From IMG/VR virus record IMGVR_UViG_2563366946_000012: DNA of 37,467 nt. One strand, 5' to 3'. A model generated the notes under the pieces. That model had not been told where the DNA came from. It did not search any database and was given only the letters and a program-made list of their open reading frames with translations. The stretch comes from a virus (taxonomy: Duplodnaviria > Heunggongvirae > Uroviricota > Caudoviricetes). Within the stretch, counting starts at the first letter, position 1. Each line of letters begins with the position of its first letter. This document shows, in pieces, positions 23,254 to 37,467 of this stretch. The position numbers were made by a program, and so were the translations under genes.

Positions 23254-24024
23254 ATGAAAATGCAGACATTACCCATCGTTCCATGGATTGGTGGCAAACG
23301 CCGCCTTGCAAAACACATCCTGCCGTTGTTTCCGGCGCATGAATGTTATGTGGAGCCGTTTTGTGGGGCAGCAGCGCTCTATTTTCTTAAGGTACCCGGC
23401 AAGATCGAAGTCATTAATGATATCAACGGTGAACTGGTGAACCTGTATCGGGTGGTAAAACATCATCTGGAAGAATTTGTACGCCAGTTCAAATGGGCGC
23501 TGGTCAGCCGGCAGATCTACAAATGGCTGCAGATCACCCCGGAAGAAACACTGACGGATATCCAGCGTGCAGCACGGTTCTACTACCTTCAGAAGCAGGC
23601 GTTTGGAGGCAAGGTGGCGGAGCACAGCTTTGGTACCTCCACCATATCCCCGCCACGCTTCAACCTGCTGCGTATTGAAGAAGAACTGTCAGCGGCACAC
23701 CTGCGGCTTTCCAGAACGGTCATAGAACACATGGACTGGCAACAATGCATAGAACGATATGATCGCCCGCATACGTTGTTCTACTGTGACCCTCCATACT
23801 GGGGAACGGAAGGTTATGGTGTGGAGTTCGGACTAGAAAATTATGATCATATGGCAGATTTAGCACGCAGGATCAAAGGGAAGATGATTATATCGGTGAA
23901 CGATATCCCGGAAATGCGGCAGGCATTCAACGGTCTAAATATTCAGTCGGTTGATATCAGCTACAACCTCAAGATCACTGGCAAATCCAGTCGCAAGAAG
24001 GAACTCATTATCCTCAACTTTTGA
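23254..24024 (+). CDS. Orphan DNA N6-adenine methyltransferase (Dam-like, alpha class)
   Basis: N-terminal AdoMet-binding block (VEPFCGAAALYF), C-terminal catalytic DPPY (FYCDPPYWGTEGYG), about 256 aa; no adjacent restriction endonuclease gene. Confidence 0.85.
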   Translation: MKMQTLPIVPWIGGKRRLAKHILPLFPAHECYVEPFCGAAALYFLKVPGKIEVINDINGELVNLYRVVKHHLEEFVRQFKWALVSRQIYKWLQITPEETLTDIQRAARFYYLQKQAFGGKVAEHSFGTSTISPPRFNLLRIEEELSAAHLRLSRTVIEHMDWQQCIERYDRPHTLFYCDPPYWGTEGYGVEFGLENYDHMADLARRIKGKMIISVNDIPEMRQAFNGLNIQSVDISYNLKITGKSSRKKELIILNF

Positions 24025-25219
24025 CCGAATAGTAAGACTTCATGCAGTGAATCAAGTACTGCATGAAGTCAAGGGCTGGTTTTGTGTACCAAAAATAAAC
24101 AGTGATAGCGGTAATAATTCCCATAACTAGAACACCACGTATAATCCAGAACGTACGTTTCTGCGTGTCTAGTCGCGCAGAAATACTGCTAAATACACCA
24201 GCCACGTCATCTTTAATGAAGGAATATTCCTTATTAATCTGTTTTTCTTTGTATTCAATTTCTTCGCCTAAGGCCTTTATAGATTGCATCTGGTTCGAAA
24301 GTGCCAGCCAGATTAACGTTGCAGCAAAAATGCATCCCAGAAGAATTATTGTGTTTGTTATCCCTTGGCCTGACCATTTCGTAGCCACTTTGAATTGGGT
24401 AGCTACGATAACAGAGGCAACAGGAATGCCAAGTATATGGTTCTGGATATCTGAAAACGCTTTGTGGATTTTACCCATTTCTTCGACTTTTGCAGCACGC
24501 AGTTGATCCATTACTTTGTCATAAGAGAATCCAGAAGAGTAGATACGATACCCTTTCAGAAACTTTTCATGCAGACGCTGAATATTGTCCAGTAAATAAG
24601 CGAATACTAGAGGTGAATCAATTCCATCACTAACTGCTTGGATACTTTCAATCAGAATATCTAGCTTCTGATCCTTATGGGTATCATCATTGAAACAAGC
24701 TATAAGGTTATCAAGATACTCTCTTTGCAAATTTTGTACATTTTCTGCAGCGAAGTGCGGTAATAGCTTGATAACTTCTTTTTTCAGAAAAACTAACTGA
24801 CAAGTTGAGTTATCAAAGTAGGCCGCGGCCTCTTTTAGCAGGTTAACGAACTCGAGAATCTTCCGGTAGTTGCTGATGAAAACGGGGATATCTTCATCAT
24901 CATTACGAAACTTTGTTTCTAGGATGAAGTAATTAGCTGGCTCAAGGCACTGATGCTTTGGAGCATTTAGCAATTTTTCATGGGTGGAAAACACAAGTCC
25001 CAGTCCACTCCGTGGTGACGTCACACGTAGGATGATCGTGTTACCTGGAGCGATAGTGCCTGTATCAATAGAAAGACCATATTCACGAGGATCATCAAGC
25101 AAAGTATCAACCAGATCACAATCGGACTGATCTAAGAGCAACAGCGAACCGACACGAAACCCCTCTTGGAATTCCATACGACGATACAGAGCTGTCAGCA
25201 TCTCAAATGAAATCGCCAC
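24014..25219 (-). CDS. Cassette gene 2: protein with large cytoplasmic N-terminal domain and two C-terminal transmembrane helices (candidate effector)
   Basis: 401-aa ORF; hydrophobic helices near residues 295-320 (ITNTIILLGCIFAATLIWLALS) and 360-385 (FWIIRGVLVMGIITAITVYFWY). Start is 2 nt after the stop of the upstream gene; AT-rich by eye. Confidence 0.6.
   Translation of the reverse strand: MAISFEMLTALYRRMEFQEGFRVGSLLLLDQSDCDLVDTLLDDPREYGLSIDTGTIAPGNTIILRVTSPRSGLGLVFSTHEKLLNAPKHQCLEPANYFILETKFRNDDEDIPVFISNYRKILEFVNLLKEAAAYFDNSTCQLVFLKKEVIKLLPHFAAENVQNLQREYLDNLIACFNDDTHKDQKLDILIESIQAVSDGIDSPLVFAYLLDNIQRLHEKFLKGYRIYSSGFSYDKVMDQLRAAKVEEMGKIHKAFSDIQNHILGIPVASVIVATQFKVATKWSGQGITNTIILLGCIFAATLIWLALSNQMQSIKALGEEIEYKEKQINKEYSFIKDDVAGVFSSISARLDTQKRTFWIIRGVLVMGIITAITVYFWYTKPALDFMQYLIHCMKSYYSVKS
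24036..24087 (+). terminator. Rho-independent-type terminator hairpin downstream of the methyltransferase
   Basis: Perfect 13-bp inverted repeat gacttcatgcagt / actgcatgaagtc with 9-nt loop (about 24036-24070), followed by GGTTTTGTGT; overlaps the last codons of the convergent minus-strand membrane-protein gene. Confidence 0.5.
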
Positions 25220-25221
25220 GA

Positions 25222-26229
25222 TTAAACCTCAGTCATCCACATTTCCCTAAATTCTTCAGGTACATTACGTAGGGTGATAATATTTGTTTCCGGATCATAA
25301 TCAATATAGCCTTCAGTTTTCCCTTCCCGGTCAAACTTAAGTTCCCAATATTTAGACTTGCCTTTAAAAGATACCAGAGCCCGAATGACTCGACCATCAG
25401 GAACGAAGCCATCCGATAACTCCAACTCTTCAGCAGCAAGTTTACCAGATAACTCCTCGGGAGCCTGGGGCCAAATGGCATTAACAAGGGTTTCAAGACT
25501 AAGTGGTTCACCAGCCTTACTTAGTGCATGTAAGTGTTCAAACGCACTCTTAAGAAATGCATCTTTTTCAGCGCCGTCAAGTCCTTTCTCTGCCGCAAAT
25601 GCTTTTAAAACGTCACGTAACTTTTCAGACTCTCGTTTGGCGATTAAGACATCATTACAGCCGAGGAACTGTTTAAAATAGTTTGAAACATTACCTTGCC
25701 CCTTAAGAAAACTGATATAGCGCTCTGCGCCACTTTCCCACGCGGTTAAGTCAATGCGCCCAGCCATACGCAGCTTAGCAATATCAAGATAGGTACTATC
25801 TTGGATGTTAAAATCATCTGTGACAGTGGACCCAATGGTAGCGCTTACAATAGCTATCAACAGGTGTTCATTGTGTCCTATCACGATATTTGCAAAAAGA
25901 ACATAACCACCAGTAGCCATGTTTTCTCGCTGAGAACGTTCCGTCAGGTGATGCATCATTCGGCAGGAACTTTGGTAGAAATCATCAACACCTTCGAGAA
26001 AGTCCCCAGCCATTCGTTCCATAGGATAGTTATCCGTATCGCCTTCAAAATAGCCATAACCTTTACCTGTGCGTCCTGCATATTTTGCACAAATATCGTT
26101 TATAAGGCGCTGGGAGGCTTCAGTAACTAGACCTTCTTCAGGACTCAATCTCTCAGAAGCGTCTCCATTTTGTTGTTTGTCTAAAATGTGAACTACAACG
26201 TGTTTAACTTCAATGGTCTGCTCAGACAT
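25222..26229 (-). CDS. Cassette gene 1: YejK/NdpA-like (NA37 family) nucleoid-associated protein homolog
   Basis: 335-aa ORF with blocks recalled from E. coli YejK (…GGYVLFANIV…HLLIAIVS…YLDIAKLRMAGRIDLTAWESGAERYISFLKG…FKQFLG…). Good RBS (AAGGTGGA) before the ATG; begins 70 bp downstream of the repressor stop on the same strand. Confidence 0.55.
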   Translation of the reverse strand: MSEQTIEVKHVVVHILDKQQNGDASERLSPEEGLVTEASQRLINDICAKYAGRTGKGYGYFEGDTDNYPMERMAGDFLEGVDDFYQSSCRMMHHLTERSQRENMATGGYVLFANIVIGHNEHLLIAIVSATIGSTVTDDFNIQDSTYLDIAKLRMAGRIDLTAWESGAERYISFLKGQGNVSNYFKQFLGCNDVLIAKRESEKLRDVLKAFAAEKGLDGAEKDAFLKSAFEHLHALSKAGEPLSLETLVNAIWPQAPEELSGKLAAEELELSDGFVPDGRVIRALVSFKGKSKYWELKFDREGKTEGYIDYDPETNIITLRNVPEEFREMWMTEV

Positions 26230-26789: not shown

Positions 26790-26795
26790 GTGCAT

Positions 26796-27020
26796 ATGAA
26801 CAAACAACAAGTTCGGGCACGGCTGGTTGAACGAGGCAGTAGCTTGCGCCAGTTCGCGCTTAACGCGGGCTATGAACCACGAACAGTCACCCAGGCAGTC
26901 AGTCGCTGGGCTGGTAAAAGTGAACTACCTCGCGGTCGTTTGACTTATCGGATTTTGCGAGATCTATCGGTTGCAATAGGTAAAGAAGTTACCCCCGGTA
27001 TCCTTAAGGAGGCGTCATGA
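26796..27020 (+). CDS. ner: Ner-like DNA-binding early regulator
   Basis: …LRQFALNAGYEPRTVTQAVSRW… resembles the Mu Ner HTH; first gene of the early operon, about 75 aa. Confidence 0.65.
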   Translation: MNKQQVRARLVERGSSLRQFALNAGYEPRTVTQAVSRWAGKSELPRGRLTYRILRDLSVAIGKEVTPGILKEAS

Positions 27021-27325
27021 ATAAACCAAATACATCAAGCTCAGGTACCCGTATTTTGCGCGTTCTTAAGGCCTTACGTGGCCACGCTTTGAACGGTGTT
27101 TCTAACGGGGAACTAGCGGTTGCACTGCACGAATCACCGGCAAACATCAACCGGGCACTTAACACGCTCATTGAAGAAGGGTTGGCTCTGAAACTAGAAA
27201 ACGGGCGTTTCGCACCAGGCATCCAGTTGCTGCAGATCGCCATGGCCCACAGTAACGAGATGGCACGTGCACAGGATCGCATTAACGAAATCAACCAACG
27301 TGTTATTTCAGGTAGTCGTTTGTAA
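27017..27325 (+). CDS. Winged-helix DNA-binding protein (IclR/MarR-like HTH)
   Basis: 102 aa; …ILRVLKALRGHALNGVSNGELAVALHESPANINRALNTLIEEGLA… looks like a wHTH; ATGA overlap with ner. Confidence 0.45.
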   Translation: MNKPNTSSSGTRILRVLKALRGHALNGVSNGELAVALHESPANINRALNTLIEEGLALKLENGRFAPGIQLLQIAMAHSNEMARAQDRINEINQRVISGSRL

Positions 27326-27335
27326 GGAGTAATCA

Positions 27336-28247
27336 ATGGGACGCACCAAATCACCGGTTAGCACTGAACTGAACGTCGAGGTACCGCTGTCGGATGATCT
27401 CAATGTCAGTCTAAACGCCATGACACAGCATCGCATGGAAATCATGCAACAGTTCGGCGATGGTCTGCCCTATGAGCGCGATCGTGTTGTCCATGAGGCA
27501 CGCTTTTATATGGCACAGAGCGCTGAGGCCATGCTGGAGGCAGGTAAGCGGCTGATAATCCTTAAGGAAAATGAACCACACGGGGAGTTTATAAAGATTC
27601 TTGAAAGTGAGTTGGGGCTGGCATACCGGACATCTGTGAGAATGATGCAAGCATCGACAAAATACTTATCCCCGGCGCTGAAACCAAATGTGCCAACGTT
27701 GGCACATTTGGGAAAAGCCAAACTTTTCGAATTAATGACAGAAGACGACGAAGAGCTTGCCGAACTGGCCGACGGCGGCACAGTTGCCGGCCTGACGCTT
27801 GACGACGTTGATCGCATGTCAGTACGTGAATTGCGTCAGGCCCTGCGCGAAGCGCGCGAAACCAACGCAGCACAACAGCGCGTACTCGCTGACAAAAATG
27901 AAAAAATAGACTCACTCTCCACCAGACTGGAGAAGAAATCCCGTATTCAGCCGCCTGAGCCTGATGAAGAGGTTAAGAAGCTGCGGGCGGAAGTGACAGC
28001 ATTAGCGGTTGAGGCGGAATCTGCTATCGCCGTTCGACTGTCCAGCGCTTTTGAGACGCTGTGCGCATATTGTGCTGAAAACATGATTGATACCCCCAGA
28101 GACTTCATGGCAGGCCTGGTCTGTCAACTGGAAAGCACAGCGCGTAGCCTGCGCTCCACATTTGACCTGCCGGATGAGCCAACAGGCAATGCCGCGCCTT
28201 CATGGCTGACTGAGCCGACGCCACAGATTAACGGGCTGGAGGCATAA
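27336..28247 (+). CDS. Hypothetical early protein
   Basis: 303-aa ORF with strong RBS (AAGGAG) upstream of the transposase; acidic, helical; no family recognised. Confidence 0.45.
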   Translation: MGRTKSPVSTELNVEVPLSDDLNVSLNAMTQHRMEIMQQFGDGLPYERDRVVHEARFYMAQSAEAMLEAGKRLIILKENEPHGEFIKILESELGLAYRTSVRMMQASTKYLSPALKPNVPTLAHLGKAKLFELMTEDDEELAELADGGTVAGLTLDDVDRMSVRELRQALREARETNAAQQRVLADKNEKIDSLSTRLEKKSRIQPPEPDEEVKKLRAEVTALAVEAESAIAVRLSSAFETLCAYCAENMIDTPRDFMAGLVCQLESTARSLRSTFDLPDEPTGNAAPSWLTEPTPQINGLEA

Positions 28248-28250
28248 CCA

Positions 28251-30020
28251 ATGAATGCTGCCCTGACTGAACGACTGGTTTATGTCGCCCGCGCGGCACG
28301 TGACGCGGGGCATGGTAAACGCGGTGCAATATACGACGCTGCCTGTGCTGAACTTGGCATGTCCCGCGCCACTCTGCTGCGCAGGCTGAAGGAGGTCTCT
28401 GTGACTGATAAACGCAAAAAACGCGCTGATGCCGGACGCAGCGCCCTGACCCGCGACGAAGCCGCGCTGATATCTGCCACACTGCGTGAGGCCACCCGCA
28501 AGAACGGTAAACGCCTCTATTCCATCGCAGATGCAGTGGAAACCCTGCGGGCTAACGGCTTTATCACCGCAGGCAGAACAGATGAAACCACCGGTGAGTT
28601 TTTCCCGTTGTCTGAAGATGCCATCAGCCGTGCTCTGCGTAACTATGGCCTGCACCCGGAACAACTGGATGCTCCTGCACCGCATACCGAAGTGGCCAGT
28701 CTGCACCCCAATCATGTCTGGCAGATTGACGCCTCACTCTGCACGCTTTACTACCTGAGCAATGGACATAAAGGGCTGCAGGTGATGGACAGAGCGAAGT
28801 TCTACAAGAACAAGCCCGCTAACCTTGCCCGTATCGCCAGTGACCGCGTGTGGAGTTACGAGATTACCGACCATGCCAGCGGCTGGATTTACGTTGAGTA
28901 TGTGACGGGCGCGGAATCAGGTGAGAACCTGTGTTCTGTGCTTATCAACGCCATGCAGGAGCGTGGCGGCGCAGACGTGCTGCACGGTGTGCCGAAAATA
29001 CTCTATCTCGACCCCGGCTCGGCAAACACCGCGGGTATGACGAAAAACATGTGCCGCTCACTGGGCATCGACCTGATAGCGCACAAGCCGCATAACGCCC
29101 GCGCCACCGGACAGGTGGAAAAGGCGCGGGACATTATCGAACGCAAGCTGGAGCCGGGTCTGAAGTTCCGGCCGGTTCACAGTCTGGAAGAACTCAACGC
29201 GCTGGCCGCGAAATGGCGCAGCCACTTTAACGCCACGGCTGTTCACAGCCGCCACGGTAAAACCCGCACGGATATCTGGCTGAAGATTACTGCTGAGCAG
29301 CTGAAAAAAGCGCCTCCCGTTGAGGTATGTCGTGAACTGGCTGTGGCGGCACCAGAACTCCGCAAAGTCACGCCAAAACTTCGTGTCTCGTTCCGGGGCA
29401 CTGAATTTGACGTATCAACGGTACCGGGCGTACTGGTTGGTGAAAAACTGATGATTACCCGTAACCCATGGCGCAGCGATGTGGCACAGGTGGTTCTGAC
29501 CGGTGAGGACGGCCACGAGACGTTCTTCCTGGTCGAAGAGGTCAGAAAGAACGAGTTTGGCTTTGCTGAAGGCGCGGCGGTATTTGGCGAAAGTTACAAA
29601 GCCCTGCCGGAAACCCCGGCACAGATGGCGGCAAAAGAAACCGAAGCGCTGGTTACCGGTACAGACAACGCCGCAGATGCAGCCGCCGCACGCAAGGCGA
29701 AGGCGCTGCCGTTCGGCGGGCGGCTTGACCCGTATAAACATATCGACGACACCACACTTCCGGCCTATATGCCGAAGCGTGGTCAGGCCTCTGACGTACG
29801 CGGGCCGCGCACTGAACAACGTCCCATGACTCATGTGGAGGCCGCGAAAGCCCTGCGCGATAAGTTCAGCGCCGACGGCCTTACCTGGACGCCGGAACAT
29901 TACCGCCAGTTAACGGCACAGTACCCGGACGGCGTACCGGAAGCCGCACTGGATGAAGTCATGGCCACGCTGACCACACCGGCCCGCAGCAGTGTTATCA
30001 GCATTGTTAACGGCAACTGA
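28251..30020 (+). CDS. DDE transposase (MuA-like / rve-type integrase core)
   Basis: 589 aa; candidate catalytic triad in …HVWQIDASLCTLYY…, …ILYLDPGSANTAG…, …ATGQVEKARDI…; followed by the ATPase partner. Confidence 0.8.
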   Translation: MNAALTERLVYVARAARDAGHGKRGAIYDAACAELGMSRATLLRRLKEVSVTDKRKKRADAGRSALTRDEAALISATLREATRKNGKRLYSIADAVETLRANGFITAGRTDETTGEFFPLSEDAISRALRNYGLHPEQLDAPAPHTEVASLHPNHVWQIDASLCTLYYLSNGHKGLQVMDRAKFYKNKPANLARIASDRVWSYEITDHASGWIYVEYVTGAESGENLCSVLINAMQERGGADVLHGVPKILYLDPGSANTAGMTKNMCRSLGIDLIAHKPHNARATGQVEKARDIIERKLEPGLKFRPVHSLEELNALAAKWRSHFNATAVHSRHGKTRTDIWLKITAEQLKKAPPVEVCRELAVAAPELRKVTPKLRVSFRGTEFDVSTVPGVLVGEKLMITRNPWRSDVAQVVLTGEDGHETFFLVEEVRKNEFGFAEGAAVFGESYKALPETPAQMAAKETEALVTGTDNAADAAAARKAKALPFGGRLDPYKHIDDTTLPAYMPKRGQASDVRGPRTEQRPMTHVEAAKALRDKFSADGLTWTPEHYRQLTAQYPDGVPEAALDEVMATLTTPARSSVISIVNGN

Positions 30021-30030
30021 GGAGGGAAAC

Positions 30031-31197
30031 ATGCTGGTACTGAAGCAGCAACTGAAAGAGGCCCGTATTCCACAGGCGGTGGTGGCGAGAGCTGTCGATG
30101 TTTCTGAGGCCACGCTGGCCCAGATTGTGAATCATAACGCGTGGCCCCGCACCAGCCCCGGAGAAGTGCGCCGGCGTCTTGCGTCCTGGCTGGAAAGTCA
30201 GGGGATTGATACAACGAAGAGTTTTGATGCTGTACAGGGCGCGGCCACGCCCCGTACAGCGGGTACCACAGATAAAACGAGCCTCAGTGAGGAAGAGAAT
30301 ATGTTACTCAAAAAACAGGTGTTATTTCCAGCAACCAAAAAAGCGTTTGGTCTTTTCCGTGACCCGTTCGCCGACGAAGCCATGCAGGGTTCTGATGATG
30401 TGTTCACCACCCCGGACATTCGCTACGTGCGTGAGGCGTTGTACCAGACAGCCCGTCATGGTGGGTTTATGGCCGTCATCGGTGAGTCCGGTGCGGGTAA
30501 ATCCACGCTGCGCCGTGACCTGACTGAACGTATCAACCGCGAGAATGCGCCGGTGATTGTTATCGAGCCATACATCATCGCTATGGAAGACAACGATGTG
30601 AAAGGGAAAACCCTGAAGGCAGCAGCGATTGCCGAAGCCATTATCAGTACCATCGCACCACTGGAAAGCATCAGACGCAGTCAGGACGCCCGCTTTCGCC
30701 AGCTGCATCGCGTCCTGAAAGACAGCAGCCAGGCGGGGTTCAGCCACGTTCTGGTGATTGAGGAGGCCCACAGTCTGCCCATTCCGACACTGAAACACCT
30801 CAAACGCTTTTTTGAGCTGGAGTCCGGTTTCAAAAAACTGCTGTCCATCGTGCTGATTGGCCAGCCGGAACTGGCGACAAAACTGTCTGAACGCAATATG
30901 GAAGTCCGTGAAGTCGTTCAGCGCTGTGAGGTGGTCGAACTTCTGCCTCTGGACAATAACCTTGAAGAGTTTCTGACGTTCAAACTGCAACGGGCCGGTA
31001 AACAACTGACGGACATTATGGACGCCAGTGCAGTGGATGCCATACGTACCCGCCTGAGCAATCCGGGAAGTCATCGTAAAAATATGGTCAGCCTGCTGTA
31101 TCCGCTGGCCGTCAGTAACCTGGTAATAGCCGCCATGAATCTGGCCGCTGAAATCGGGGTTCCACAGGTCAACGCTGACGTTGTCAAAGGGGTTTAA
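30031..31197 (+). CDS. Transposition ATPase (MuB/TniB-like AAA+)
   Basis: Walker A GESGAGKST and Walker B-like HVLVIEEAH; ATG at 30031 preceded by GGAGGG (the track ORF begins earlier at an alternative start). Confidence 0.8.
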   Translation: MLVLKQQLKEARIPQAVVARAVDVSEATLAQIVNHNAWPRTSPGEVRRRLASWLESQGIDTTKSFDAVQGAATPRTAGTTDKTSLSEEENMLLKKQVLFPATKKAFGLFRDPFADEAMQGSDDVFTTPDIRYVREALYQTARHGGFMAVIGESGAGKSTLRRDLTERINRENAPVIVIEPYIIAMEDNDVKGKTLKAAAIAEAIISTIAPLESIRRSQDARFRQLHRVLKDSSQAGFSHVLVIEEAHSLPIPTLKHLKRFFELESGFKKLLSIVLIGQPELATKLSERNMEVREVVQRCEVVELLPLDNNLEEFLTFKLQRAGKQLTDIMDASAVDAIRTRLSNPGSHRKNMVSLLYPLAVSNLVIAAMNLAAEIGVPQVNADVVKGV

Positions 31198-31199
31198 TA

Positions 31200-31469
31200 A
31201 TGAAATCCACCACAGGTATCAACCAGCAAATCAGTAAAGTGCAGTCAGCCATTATGGCGCTTAAGGCGACGAACACGGATGTACAAAGCATCACCATCAG
31301 GGGTAACAAACCTGTCATCCGCGTTTCCAGGAGTGCGCATTGCATGCGCATGCTTGAGCAGGGAAAGGCCTGTTATCTGTATACCGGACATGACCACAGG
31401 GGATATTTCCGTCAGGGCGTTTTCGAACTGCACGGCTGTCGCGTCGTGTGGCCGGAATCTTTGTGGTAA
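31200..31469 (+). CDS. Hypothetical early protein
   Basis: 89-aa ORF coupled to the ATPase gene; Cys/His-containing. Confidence 0.35.
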   Translation: MKSTTGINQQISKVQSAIMALKATNTDVQSITIRGNKPVIRVSRSAHCMRMLEQGKACYLYTGHDHRGYFRQGVFELHGCRVVWPESLW

Positions 31470-31496
31470 TCAGCACAACTGGAGAAATCATAAAAA

Positions 31497-32027
31497 ATGG
31501 CAAAAAGTACAAAAGGTGCAAAACGTATCAAGGCCGCAGCAGCACTCTGGGTGCCGGGGACACGTGAAGAGGTCATTGAGGGAATCAGACTACTCGGTGA
31601 CGCACAACGTGAACTGGTCAGGGCTGAAACAGAAATGAATGACGCCATTGGCGATATCACCGCACGTTATGCCACGCTCACCGAGAGCCTGAAAAAACGC
31701 ATGGCCGAACTGCAGTCCGGTATTCAGACATGGTGTGAGGCACACCGTGATGAACTGACCGGCAACGGGAAGGTGAAGTTCGCTAACCTCACCACCGGCG
31801 AGGTGCAGTGGCGAAACCGTCCGCCATCAGTCAGTATCCGTGGGGCGGATAATGTTATTGAATTACTGAGACGTCTGGGGCTTGAGCGCTTTATTCGTGT
31901 AAAAGAGGAAATAAATAAAGACGCTATCCTGAATGAAAAAGAGGCCGTGAAAAATATTCCCGGTATTTCCATTAAAAGCGACATTGAGGATTTTTCAATA
32001 ATTCCTTTTGAGCAGGATGTGCAGTAA
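31497..32027 (+). CDS. gam: Gam-like host-nuclease inhibitor (DNA-end-binding)
   Basis: 176 aa; MAKSTKGAKRIKAAAALWVPGTREEVIEGIRLLGDAQRELVRAETEMNDAIGDITARY… resembles Mu Gam in sequence and length; GGAG RBS. Confidence 0.75.
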   Translation: MAKSTKGAKRIKAAAALWVPGTREEVIEGIRLLGDAQRELVRAETEMNDAIGDITARYATLTESLKKRMAELQSGIQTWCEAHRDELTGNGKVKFANLTTGEVQWRNRPPSVSIRGADNVIELLRRLGLERFIRVKEEINKDAILNEKEAVKNIPGISIKSDIEDFSIIPFEQDVQ

Positions 32028-32124
32028 ACACACCACGTTAATTATTTAATAAAAACATTTTCTTTTTTATTCCGGCGTCAGCGCCGCGGGCTTCTGCACG
32101 CCGGAAACAGAGGAGAATTAAATC

Positions 32125-32319
32125 ATGATATTTAAATGTATTCAGTGCGAGAGGGATATAACAGCCCTGCGTTTTCACAGCGCCATCGCCGTGATGTCCG
32201 GTAAATACCACATCCCTGCGGTACGCGTCACCCTGGTCTGCCCGTACTGCAGCCAGCATTTTTCGGCAGACGTGCCCGTCATGGAATTCTCCCGCCCTGA
32301 CAGGGAGGACTCGCAATGA
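32125..32319 (+). CDS. Small zinc-ribbon protein
   Basis: 64 aa with CxxC (CIQCE) and CxxC (CPYC) pairs; AGGAG RBS. Confidence 0.4.
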   Translation: MIFKCIQCERDITALRFHSAIAVMSGKYHIPAVRVTLVCPYCSQHFSADVPVMEFSRPDREDSQ

Positions 32320-32588
32320 TTACCCCACAGGAAGCACGACAGCGCACCCGATCCCTTGTTGAACACTATGTCAACGAGTGTGAATGCCGCGACCTCACCG
32401 ATGTGAAGCACGTCCTGACGGCGCTAATCAGCATGACCGCTCAGGCCATTGTGGCGACCAACGGAAAGGCGGCTGCCCTGCAGGTACTGGTGAACACACT
32501 AACCCACACGGCAGCGCATGAGGTGCCGTACCGGATGGAAACCACTGCAGAAGGCGGTCTGCACATCACCGTCAGCCGGAAGCACTGA
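32316..32588 (+). CDS. Hypothetical early protein
   Basis: 90-aa ORF, ATGA-coupled to the preceding gene. Confidence 0.35.
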   Translation: MITPQEARQRTRSLVEHYVNECECRDLTDVKHVLTALISMTAQAIVATNGKAAALQVLVNTLTHTAAHEVPYRMETTAEGGLHITVSRKH

Positions 32589-32597
32589 GGGCGCAGC

Positions 32598-32903
32598 ATG
32601 ACACGGTACACCATACTCACCCGCACCGCCCTCTACCGTCTGGCCCTGCAGCGTTTCGGGCCGGACGCACAGGCCCTGAAACTGACAGAAGAGGCCGCTG
32701 AACTGGCAGCCTGTGCTGCCCGCAACCTGAACGGACAGGGCAGTGAAAGTGACCTCGCGGCAGAGCTGGCAGACGTGGAAATCATGACAGAGCAGTTGCG
32801 CCTTCAGGGGATGGACCGGCTGATTGACTTCCACAAACAGAAAAAACTGGAACGCCTTGCCGCACGGCTGGGCGTCATGTACACCGGAGATACTGAACAA
32901 TGA
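32598..32903 (+). CDS. Possible MazG-like nucleotide pyrophosphohydrolase domain protein
   Basis: 101 aa; acidic helix motifs (…LTEEAAELAA…AAELADVEIMTEQL…) reminiscent of the EExxE-type MazG fold. Weak call. Confidence 0.35.
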   Translation: MTRYTILTRTALYRLALQRFGPDAQALKLTEEAAELAACAARNLNGQGSESDLAAELADVEIMTEQLRLQGMDRLIDFHKQKKLERLAARLGVMYTGDTEQ

Positions 32904-33583
32904 CAGACCTGGATAAACACATTGAAAAACTGAAAAAGTTGCTGGCGCTGGCAGCATCCGGCAACCCGTATGAGGCTGCTCTGGCACTGCGCCGCGCCCG
33001 TAAACTGATGGATGTTCACGGCATCACACATTCCGACATCGCCATGAGTGATATTGATGAAACCATCAGTCACTACTGGCCGACAGGCAGCCTCCGTCCA
33101 CCGCGCTACATGCTGGGCCTGATGAACATCATCCGCGAGGCATTTGGTGTTAACTCCATCATTCACCCCGGCACATATCCGGGTGTGGGGTTCTACGGCA
33201 ACCGGGAACGGGCCGCACTGGCTGCGTACACCTGGGAAGTGCTGGCCCGCCAGCTGAAAAAGGCGCGTCAACAGTATATCAGCGCACAGAACAAAAGAAT
33301 AAAAACTGCCACCCGTACCAGCCGTGGTGACCAGTTTGCTGAAGGCTGGGTGCTGGCCGTTATCAGTGAAATACAGTCCTTCGCCCTGACCGATGACGAA
33401 CGTGAACTGATGCAGCAGTGGCTGGAACATAAATACCCGCAAACGCAAACCACCAGGGCGCGTAAACCGGGAAGAAGCCGCAATGGCGACGCCTCGCGCT
33501 ATGCGGGGTTTCGTGAAGGGCAGAACGTCAGACTGCACCGCCCGGTCAGTGGGCAGGAACAACAGAAACTGGAGGCCAGATGA
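32900..33583 (+). CDS. Hypothetical phage protein (DUF2786-like N-terminus)
   Basis: 227 aa; N-terminal …IEKLKKLLALAASGNPYEAALALRRARKLMDVHGIT… motif common in phage early proteins. Confidence 0.4.
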   Translation: MTDLDKHIEKLKKLLALAASGNPYEAALALRRARKLMDVHGITHSDIAMSDIDETISHYWPTGSLRPPRYMLGLMNIIREAFGVNSIIHPGTYPGVGFYGNRERAALAAYTWEVLARQLKKARQQYISAQNKRIKTATRTSRGDQFAEGWVLAVISEIQSFALTDDERELMQQWLEHKYPQTQTTRARKPGRSRNGDASRYAGFREGQNVRLHRPVSGQEQQKLEAR

Positions 33584-33810
33584 TTACGCTATCAGGTAAC
33601 AGCCGGAAATTAAAAGCCTGCCGAATATCTGCCAGATACCTTTTTGCCCGCGCCTTTTTTAAGAACGTCAGGCCGGGGATCACAATTGGTGTTATTGCCG
33701 GACGCGAACAGGTTGAAAAATACATGTCAGGTGCATGGTGGAATAACGCCCCTGTCATTGCTGCCCGTAATATTCATATCAGTTGGGGGGATATTCAGAA
33801 TGACGGCTGA
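33580..33810 (+). CDS. Hypothetical small protein
   Basis: 76-aa ORF, ATGA-coupled to the upstream gene. Confidence 0.3.
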   Translation: MITLSGNSRKLKACRISARYLFARAFFKNVRPGITIGVIAGREQVEKYMSGAWWNNAPVIAARNIHISWGDIQNDG

Positions 33811-34015
33811 ATCTGTTGTATGTGCCCTGTTCTGGTATTGTTTTGTCGGTTGGTGTACTGCTGAACTGCACCGCCGTTCAGGGTTTTATTCACGTTACAG
33901 TGGTGCCGGCTACTGGATTAGCTGGTCGGTGATGTTCCTGTGCTGGCCTGTGGCGCTTCCTTTATATGTCGATTATATCGGTGGCGCAGGTAAAAGGAGC
34001 AACGATGATGACTAA
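33800..34015 (+). CDS. Small two-helix membrane protein
   Basis: Internal ATG of the 123-aa track ORF gives MTAESVVCALFWYCFVGWCTAEL…WISWSVMFLCWPVALPLY… (about 71 aa, two hydrophobic helices), overlapping the neighbouring genes. Confidence 0.3.
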   Translation: MTAESVVCALFWYCFVGWCTAELHRRSGFYSRYSGAGYWISWSVMFLCWPVALPLYVDYIGGAGKRSNDDD

Positions 34016-34457
34016 ACAACGTCTTATCCAGCTCATTCATATTGCCCGTAATGAACTGGGTATGGATGAAGACACCTACCGCCAGATGTTACAGGGGCTG
34101 ACCGGTAAAGCCTCAACCAAAGGAATGGATACCACACAACTAAACTGCGTGCTGGAATCCATGAAAAGGAAAGGCTTTCGCGTTAAGCCTGCCAGAAAAG
34201 CCAGCTCCGGTTTACCGCTGGATAACCATCCGCAGTCCAGGAAAATCCGTGCGCTATGGCTTGAAATGGCTGCTGCCGGCATTGTTCGTGACCGTTCAGA
34301 AAATGCATTAGCGCGGTGGATCAAGCGGGAAACGGGCATCAGCGCCCTGCGCTGGCTCAATACTGAACAGGCAAGCAGTGTTATTGAGAAACTGAAGAAG
34401 TGGCAGCACAGAGCTGCGGGAGTAAAACATGAGCGACCTGAATCAGTTTCGAAGTAA
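34005..34457 (+). CDS. gemA: GemA-like regulatory protein (Mu gp16 family)
   Basis: MMTKQRLIQLIHIARNELGMDEDTYRQMLQGLTGKASTKGMDTTQLNCVLESMKRKGF… resembles GemA; ATG preceded by AAAGGAG. Confidence 0.65.
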   Translation: MMTKQRLIQLIHIARNELGMDEDTYRQMLQGLTGKASTKGMDTTQLNCVLESMKRKGFRVKPARKASSGLPLDNHPQSRKIRALWLEMAAAGIVRDRSENALARWIKRETGISALRWLNTEQASSVIEKLKKWQHRAAGVKHERPESVSK

Positions 34458-34818
34458 AGGGCCGGAACTCTTGGTGGAGCTGGCACAGCATACCTCTGAG
34501 ACCGTTCGCGAGATTATTGATATTGAGCCCGCAATTGCCGACCAGATTGGTCAGGCCGTCGCGAACCGCATGATGCAGGTCTGGGGCGGGCAAAACGTTT
34601 ATTTCCCGATGGGCATGGTATGGAAGGTCAGTCAGCGCGACCGGGAAATCTTCAGGGAGTTTAACGGACGTAACCACCATGAACTGGCCCGCAAATTTGG
34701 TGTTTCGCTTCAGTGGGTCTACAGCGTGGTTAAGCGGGTAAGAAAAGAAGAACTGGATCGGATGCAGGGCAAGCTATTTGCTGATGAACCCGATGTAGAT
34801 ACGGAGAAAAAAGAGTAA
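34429..34818 (+). CDS. mor: Mor-family transcriptional activator (middle operon regulator)
   Basis: 129 aa; …QVWGGQNVYFPMG…RDREIFREFNGRNHHELARKFGVSLQWVYSVVKRVRKE… matches the Mor/C-family C-terminal HTH pattern; last gene before the prophage end. Confidence 0.75.
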   Translation: MSDLNQFRSKGPELLVELAQHTSETVREIIDIEPAIADQIGQAVANRMMQVWGGQNVYFPMGMVWKVSQRDREIFREFNGRNHHELARKFGVSLQWVYSVVKRVRKEELDRMQGKLFADEPDVDTEKKE

Positions 34819-34847
34819 TATCTGCAATCAGGCTGGAGCGAGTTCTG

Positions 34848-37467
<2,620 letters not shown>

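Follow-up and report, generated by a model that had tools for sequence, protein, structure and literature searches.

A mosaic string of early genes flanked by the transposition ATPase gene and gemA in a BcepMu-like Escherichia coli prophage

What do the small genes do that a transposable phage carries between its transposition genes and gemA? The question is raised by the viral record IMGVR_UViG_2563366946_000012, a stretch of 37,467 nucleotides (nt) that we analysed as a whole and refer to as the window, in which a string of eight such genes occupies positions 31200-34015 on the + strand. A preliminary description of this DNA had regarded these early-operon genes as candidate host-takeover or anti-defence factors. 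Our analysis indicates that the block is probably the semi-essential early region of a BcepMu-like prophage and constitutes a mosaic host-interaction toolkit. As such it is an ordinary, already annotated case of the variable early regions that Mu, B3 and further transposable phages are known to have, and as it stands it adds no new mechanism. The anti-defence idea is a plausible hypothesis for every gene of the block except Gam.

The window DNA belongs to a BcepMu-like (Bcepmuvirus) transposable prophage of Escherichia coli. Positions 31200-33810 are 97.3% identical to phage PhiKM (Bcepmuvirus), two complete E. coli genomes contain prophages that match them at 100%, and the block was detected in 629 of 5426 complete E. 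coli genomes. On its left, the block is anchored by the gene of the transposition ATPase (B; MuB analogue, ExeA family; 30031-31197, +), named according to the RefSeq annotation of an identical prophage, and on its right by gemA (34008-34457, +; PF06252, E=7.7e-41) and mor (34429-34818, +; PF08765, E=1.3e-43), with which the early operon ends. All items of the string that had been named between the ATPase gene and gemA could be located on the + strand. Its extent has to be corrected at one side: the listed genes are present, but the block does not end at 33810, as an eighth gene, orf71 (33800-34015), precedes gemA.

This arrangement resembles the semi-essential (SE/SEE) early region of Mu in several respects. 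Both regions follow the genes of the transposase and the ATPase and precede gemA/mor, all of them being on the same strand, both belong to early-operon transcription and contain many small genes without assigned function, including gam, and both are poorly conserved among relatives (PMC8705779, PMC3820752), in line with published accounts, according to which the semi-essential region in transposable phages is long and poorly conserved and encodes small uncharacterised proteins (PMC8705779; PMC3820752). The earlier placement in a Mu-type semi-essential region therefore fits with respect to both position and variable gene content. In contrast, the gene set differs from that of Mu, with Pfam-level counterparts only for Gam, GemA and Mor, while a MazG-type enzyme and a DUF2786-DUF7168 protein are carried here. 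The layout also differs and is of the BcepMu type, with the early operon at the right end of the prophage and the late genes on the opposite strand.

The variability of the block became evident from a comparison with 80 loci from viral contigs, with an ATPase identity of 81-100%; presence was counted in the 76 loci that span B to gemA. Chaining of open reading frames (ORFs) yielded 36 gene orders in 81 loci, an approximate number since this crude procedure sometimes merges orf76 and orf71. In loci with B at 90-98% identity, the median amino acid (aa) identity is 93% for both B and Mor, and 56% for orf64, 65% for the DUF2786 protein, 68% for orf89 and 69% for the MazG-like protein. The same mosaic is visible at the DNA level: compared with the relative L053, positions 28251-31441 are 87% and positions 33800-34818 are 88% identical, whereas in the interior some parts could not be aligned and others are about 71% identical. 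Even in near-identical prophages, the interval between the MazG-like and DUF2786 genes contains no extra gene (window), one (a 71-aa membrane protein) or two (a 127-aa protein together with the membrane protein). The preliminary description had stated that an assignment of all small ORFs to conserved replication or transposition roles, without variability among relatives, would speak against its view; what we found instead were many gene orders, a patchy presence table and mosaic DNA identity. Based on these data, orf89 (75/76 loci), the MazG-like gene (67/76) and the DUF2786/DUF7168 gene (63/76) look near-core rather than like fast-turnover cargo. Swappable cassettes are Gam/DUF3164 (Gam in 38/76), orf64 (65/76), orf90 (41/76), orf76 (38/76) and orf71 (66/76), together with the slot that separates the MazG-like gene from the DUF2786 gene.

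Translational coupling, which had been assumed for the whole string, applies to most junctions. Overlaps of 4-29 nt are present at orf64/orf90, MazG/DUF2786, DUF2786/orf76, orf76/orf71, orf71/gemA and gemA/mor, and gaps measure 2 nt between B and orf89, 27 nt between orf89 and gam, 9 nt between orf90 and the MazG-like gene and 97 nt between gam and orf64. The coupling is not uniform, due to the structured 97-nt spacer and the other gaps. Matches to consensus promoters and terminators are no commoner than in shuffled sequence, which is consistent with a single operon, and we infer that the block is co-transcribed with the transposition genes.

Since several of the proteins are only 64-90 aa long and belong to no Pfam family, one could suspect that the uncharacterised ORFs merely happen to be open within a spacer that separates genuine genes. 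We give this explanation next to no credence. All eight block genes are annotated coding sequences (CDS) in RefSeq, and the ratio of non-synonymous to synonymous substitutions (dN/dS; Nei-Gojobori, divergent homologues) is 0.14 for orf89, 0.19 for orf64, 0.39 for orf90, 0.20 for the MazG-like gene, 0.14 for the DUF2786 gene, 0.14 for orf76 and 0.15 for orf71, compared with 0.06 for B and mor and 0.11 for gam and gemA; these values are rough, as dS is near saturation in many pairs. The range of 0.11-0.39 indicates that the eight genes are real. For the uncharacterised ORFs, values of 0.14-0.39 were obtained against homologues with down to 41% aa identity, and each has a PHROG family of its own (E of 5e-15 or below). 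Invariant cysteines and motifs as well as the tight spacing with start/stop overlaps point in the same direction, and this conservation rules out spurious ORFs.

For Gam (31497-32027, +), the Mu-type DNA-end-binding host-nuclease inhibitor, the assignment is backed by a full-length match above the curated cut-off: residues 23-169 cover positions 1-148 of the 149 positions of PF07352 (E=6.8e-41, 140.1 bits, cut-off 28.3), and phrog_491 is matched with E=7e-73. Gam of Mu binds double-stranded DNA ends and blocks RecBCD, and from its full-length family membership we infer that the protein of the window would inhibit RecBCD as well. The Gam position is occupied by a DUF3164 protein (PF11363, E=7e-80) in about half of the related loci, for example in L053 (8457-9068) and in L087, phage B3 (3310-3933). 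Pseudomonas B3-type phages alternate likewise, with Gam in H72 and DUF3164 in B3, each just upstream of the DUF2786 gene. We considered both proteins as distant homologues and rejected this, as hhalign returned a probability of 0.2% with shallow profiles. The exchange therefore appears to be a non-homologous replacement, which suggests that the functions of Gam and DUF3164 are interchangeable and possibly analogous.

One of the near-core genes encodes a 101-aa single-domain NTP (nucleoside triphosphate) pyrophosphohydrolase of the all-alpha MazG type (32598-32903, +; phrog_2245 'NTP pyrophosphohydrolase', E=3.4e-33). What had been called a possible MazG-like enzyme is correct at the superfamily level, with a MazG-type fold and intact catalytic residues. 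MazG-type enzymes bind their metal via the signature EExxE...ExxD. In 20 close homologues, E31, E32, E56 and D59 never vary and E35 is conserved at 90% or more; in 61 homologues with 29-67% identity, E31 and D59 are still invariant, with E32, E35 and E56 conserved at 90% or more. The AlphaFold2 (AF2) model is all-helical with a predicted local distance difference test (pLDDT) score of 83.8, and its best structural matches are MazG, HisE and DCTPP1. The family is very large: an exhaustive profile search (E up to 1e-3) yielded 10,375 cluster representatives. The window protein itself matches no Pfam model at E up to 0.1; of the 61 homologues, 14 match PF03819, two PF12643 and two PF01503 at E up to 0.01. 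Sequence searches of the PDB with the protein, singly and as a profile, gave nothing significant, and a wider profile gave weak matches to the MazG family only (E 0.018-0.39). Taken together, membership in the all-alpha NTP pyrophosphohydrolase superfamily is well supported. The protein is comparable to other single-domain members as integron iMazG, Sulfolobus SSO3215, DCTPP1/RS21-C6 and HisE, with which it shares a helical domain of about 100 aa, the EExxE...ExxD signature and the best structural matches, but unlike them it stays below every Pfam model.

The C-terminus of this enzyme, '...YTGDTEQ' (32880-32903), is composed of the MazG end '...YT' and the end 'NTGDTEQ' of the 71-aa membrane-protein gene, which is retained in most relatives. 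As its final codons derive from the 3' end of that gene, the window allele is, as read from the sequence, a deleted form in which a deletion of 221 bp (base pairs) fused the two frames.

A depletion of alarmones or signalling molecules, as had been suggested for this enzyme, would be an analogy to Atd1 of the Pectobacterium phage PcCB7V, likewise a phage-encoded MazG-like enzyme that consists of the catalytic domain only. Atd1 is reported to hydrolyse (p)ppGpp and to protect from TIR-STING toxicity (bioRxiv 10.1101/2022.06.09.495361), and this preprint provides a precedent, not evidence. A tblastn search with the MazG-like protein against 50,697 phage records (E up to 0.01) gave five matches, four in Escherichia/Klebsiella phages and one in a faecal phage sequence; no Pectobacterium phage was among them, in a collection that was not checked for the presence of PcCB7V.

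Another near-core gene (32900-33583, +) encodes a protein of 227 aa, in which DUF2786 (PF10979; residues 8-44, E=2e-9, 37.7 bits, cut-off 23.9) is followed by DUF7168 (PF23771; residues 46-189, E=5.8e-26, 91.2 bits, cut-off 25.5). With both domains above the curated cut-offs and in N-to-C order, the DUF2786-like assignment stands. The protein is basic, with an isoelectric point (pI) of 9.9 and a net charge of +11, and in the structural model (pLDDT 84.8) a helical hairpin at the N-terminus is followed by a KH-like core of the order beta-alpha-beta-beta-alpha and by C-terminal helices with a basic tail. DUF7168 as a true KH domain was rejected, as the GXXG loop is absent. Charge and the modelled KH-like core suggest that the protein probably binds nucleic acid. 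Homologues with 30-38% identity are found at the equivalent position in Mu-like phages of Pseudomonas (B3), Shewanella (MuM16-2), Pasteurella and Ralstonia, which speaks for an old, semi-core role and against fast-changing counter-defence cargo. PDB sequence searches with the protein, singly and as a profile, gave nothing significant, and the literature mentions DUF2786 in passing only and neither DUF7168 nor the RefSeq protein accessions.

These near-core genes give room to a different reading, in which the block mainly serves the phage's own replication and transposition instead of dealing with host defences. The MazG-like enzyme would then sanitise or bias the deoxynucleoside triphosphate (dNTP) pool, the DUF2786-DUF7168 protein and orf89 would act on phage DNA or RNA, and Gam would only protect transposition intermediates and linear infecting DNA. 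Such a role agrees with the frequent occurrence of orf89, the MazG-like gene and the DUF2786 gene (75, 67 and 63 of 76 loci), with the strong purifying selection and with the same relative position of DUF2786/7168 in distant Mu-like phages (B3 ORF5, Shewanella MuM16-2 p12), and the closest structural relatives of the enzyme, MazG, HisE and DCTPP1, are housekeeping pyrophosphatases. However, each of these genes is missing in some relatives with intact A, B, gemA and mor, so none of them is indispensable. In addition, relatives use these slots for cassettes of the Lar and nuclease-inhibitor types, and the equivalent region of Mu is dispensable for laboratory growth (PMC3820752). On balance we consider a block devoted mainly to replication and transposition unlikely.

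The remaining genes of the toolkit are small and unassigned. The 89-aa, basic (pI 9.9) product of orf89 (31200-31469, +; phrog_2041, E=3e-36; 'HI_1482 family protein' in RefSeq) is encoded directly after B in these Mu-like prophages, with 35-100% identity among the loci that have it and the conserved positions G..P.I / C / CR..W.E. The 64-aa product of orf64 (32125-32319, +; phrog_3401, E=1.6e-40) had been described as a CxxC...CxxC zinc-ribbon protein, and both cysteine pairs (C5, C8, C39, C42) are invariant in all 22 distinct homologues, down to 23% identity, so that a zinc ribbon with metal binding is predicted. A relationship to the Lar family was tested and discarded: orf64 has no PF14354 match at E up to 0.1 and shares with Lar the generic zinc-ribbon pattern and nothing further. 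The 90-aa product of orf90 (32316-32588, +; phrog_3691, E=1.5e-54) diverges to 74-99% identity even where B is at least 99% identical, and its dN/dS is the maximum of the block. Besides, orf76 (33580-33810, +; phrog_3681, E=6.6e-53) encodes a basic protein of 76 aa, and orf71 (+; phrog_6436, E=5e-15; RefSeq CDS) a protein of 71 aa with two hydrophobic helices by hydropathy, a predicted two-helix membrane protein. The latter gene exists in two alleles of about 40% identity, and PhiKM-type loci carry an allele that is 38-41% identical. For none of the eight proteins of the block did NCBIfam give an informative match, and none matched a PADLOC defence model at E up to 0.1.

The membrane proteins lead to a further alternative, in which some of the small genes, especially orf71 and the 71-aa membrane cassette of relatives, are lysogen-benefit genes rather than lytic counter-defence genes and act by low-level expression from the prophage, for example in superinfection exclusion or host physiology. 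In Mu lysogens the semi-essential genes are indeed transcribed at a low level by early transcription that reads through them, and a benefit for the host was proposed (PMC3820752); moreover, membrane proteins are predicted for both orf71 and the F8 cassette. Nevertheless, these genes have no promoter signal of their own upstream, they overlap with the neighbouring early genes, and they match no PADLOC defence model, which makes a dedicated lysogen function quite improbable.

With regard to the host-interaction toolkit, the cassettes of the relatives are informative. Relative L049 encodes a Lar restriction-alleviation domain (PF14354, 34.7 bits, cut-off 28.6), the relatives L077, L078 and L083 a 152-aa protein that matches phrog_1518 'host nuclease inhibitor' (E=3.7e-19), and the relatives L063, L066 and L072 a dATP/dGTP pyrophosphohydrolase (PF04447); other cassettes hold a DUF2528 protein and several proteins without any match. 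The Lar and host-nuclease-inhibitor cassettes of these related prophages lie between the Gam/DUF3164 gene and gemA and are absent from the window. The expectation that anti-restriction genes reside in this region thus holds for relatives (Lar, phrog_1518), but not for the window itself. A literature search brought up no study of counter-defence genes from the early regions of transposable phages, BcepMu-like ones included. In the interval between orf64 and the DUF2786 gene, the cassette proteins of L016, L044, L063, L066 and L070 have modules in common: a shared N-terminal segment ('...RLAQVYRNLKRWADHDNVLNSYISGQKIDPIFHDC...') is joined either to the PF04447 domain or to an uncharacterised domain that also follows Lar in L049. 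The combination of one segment with different partners points to domain shuffling inside the slot.

Apart from the coding capacity, the 97-nt spacer between gam and orf64 contains a conserved RNA hairpin (32057-32118, +), an interrupted stem of 15 bp whose core pairs 32070-32078 with 32098-32106 (fold -29.5 kcal/mol, z=-3.4). Of 87 related loci, 75 contain its 31-nt core, each as a single copy, and only one of these copies has more than three substitutions; the hairpin is conserved far better than the genes on both sides. It persists regardless of whether Gam or DUF3164 precedes it, and orf64, which follows it, has diverged to about 55% identity and is replaced by another gene in two loci. Across the hairpin pairs, 96.7% of the alignment cells are paired; one compensatory U-A/C-G exchange and five C-to-U changes that preserve pairing on the + strand as G-U stand beside four disruptive changes, and the variation is too low for a strong covariation claim, with the loop conserved as much as the stem. 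An intrinsic terminator was excluded, since no U-run follows the stem on either strand. No Rfam family matches the hairpin, and a scan of genome contigs with a loose 18-base hairpin pattern returned chance matches only, in unrelated taxa; the loci L088-L167 were disregarded. Upstream of the stem, a U-run (32058-32067) can pair with the Shine-Dalgarno sequence of orf64 (32110-32115). Most likely, the hairpin would mask the translation of orf64 or act as a site of RNA processing or stability by which the cassette block is set apart from the genes upstream.

These observations can be combined into a model of how the host-interaction toolkit may operate. At the onset of lytic growth, the compact and mostly coupled string would be co-transcribed with the transposase and ATPase genes. 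Its scaffold would consist of orf89 (HI_1482-like), Gam or DUF3164, the MazG-like enzyme and the DUF2786-DUF7168 protein, followed by gemA and mor, and would be complemented by small exchangeable cassettes, here orf64, orf90, orf76 and orf71 and others in relatives. By homology to Mu Gam, Gam would first bind double-stranded DNA ends and block RecBCD. The MazG-like protein, judged by fold and motif a metal-dependent NTP pyrophosphohydrolase, would then alter some nucleotide pool, the basic DUF2786-DUF7168 protein would bind nucleic acid, and the remaining small proteins would most likely act by binding host proteins.

Several points weigh against this model. Besides Gam, no gene of the block matches a characterised host-takeover or anti-defence family in Pfam, PHROG, NCBIfam or PADLOC, and we found no link of the window's uncharacterised genes to any defence system. 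The operon structure is deduced from spacing and the lack of consensus signals, and orf89, the MazG-like enzyme and the DUF2786/7168 protein could equally serve replication, transposition or nucleotide housekeeping. Variability alone is no proof of a counter-defence role. A more far-reaching version would be that orf64, orf90, the MazG-like gene, orf76 and orf71 include at least one inhibitor of a new kind, directed against an anti-phage system of E. coli, and that the block from the hairpin to gemA is a counter-defence hotspot, the expression of which is gated by the hairpin masking the ribosome-binding site of orf64. This we offer as a speculative idea that may well prove wrong.

Concerning the surroundings of the block, the early operon additionally comprises, all on the + strand, a small ORF (26790-27020), a helix-turn-helix (HTH) protein (27017-27325), a DUF3102 protein (27336-28247) and the transposase (28251-30020). 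The chromosomal sites of the prophages differ, as yhfW, cbrA and aceK adjoin those of other strains and the insertion described here lies inside sslE/yghJ, which fits random transposition. The sequence common to other insertions extends 161-164 nt beyond the mor stop codon and thereby places the right end of the prophage near 34980. This right end (34819-34980) lies inside the host lipoprotein gene sslE/yghJ, and the truncated host ORF (34948-37467, -) continues into the phage-end sequence.

Two further loci outside the block are possibly related to defence. Adjoining the repressor, positions 24014-26229 (-) hold a low-GC (39-44%) cargo of two genes, encoding a 401-aa protein with a weak match to the PADLOC model KwaA of Kiwa (E=8e-5) and a 335-aa protein of the NA37 nucleoid-associated type (PF04245, E=1e-80). 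PhiKM lacks both genes at that spot, and the cargo may be a prophage-borne defence module. A D12-class N6-adenine DNA methyltransferase is encoded at 23254-24024 (+; PF02086, E=7e-28; PADLOC type II/orphan methyltransferase, E=4e-115), and it is plausible that this enzyme, although outside the early block, provides a genuine anti-restriction function of this phage.

For the search for counter-defence genes, the comparison presented here narrows the set of candidates by distinguishing near-core from swappable genes, and it shows where relatives insert anti-restriction and nuclease-inhibitor domains. As this prophage family is present in more than one tenth of the complete E. coli genomes, its early region represents an abundant pool of small early-lytic phage proteins.

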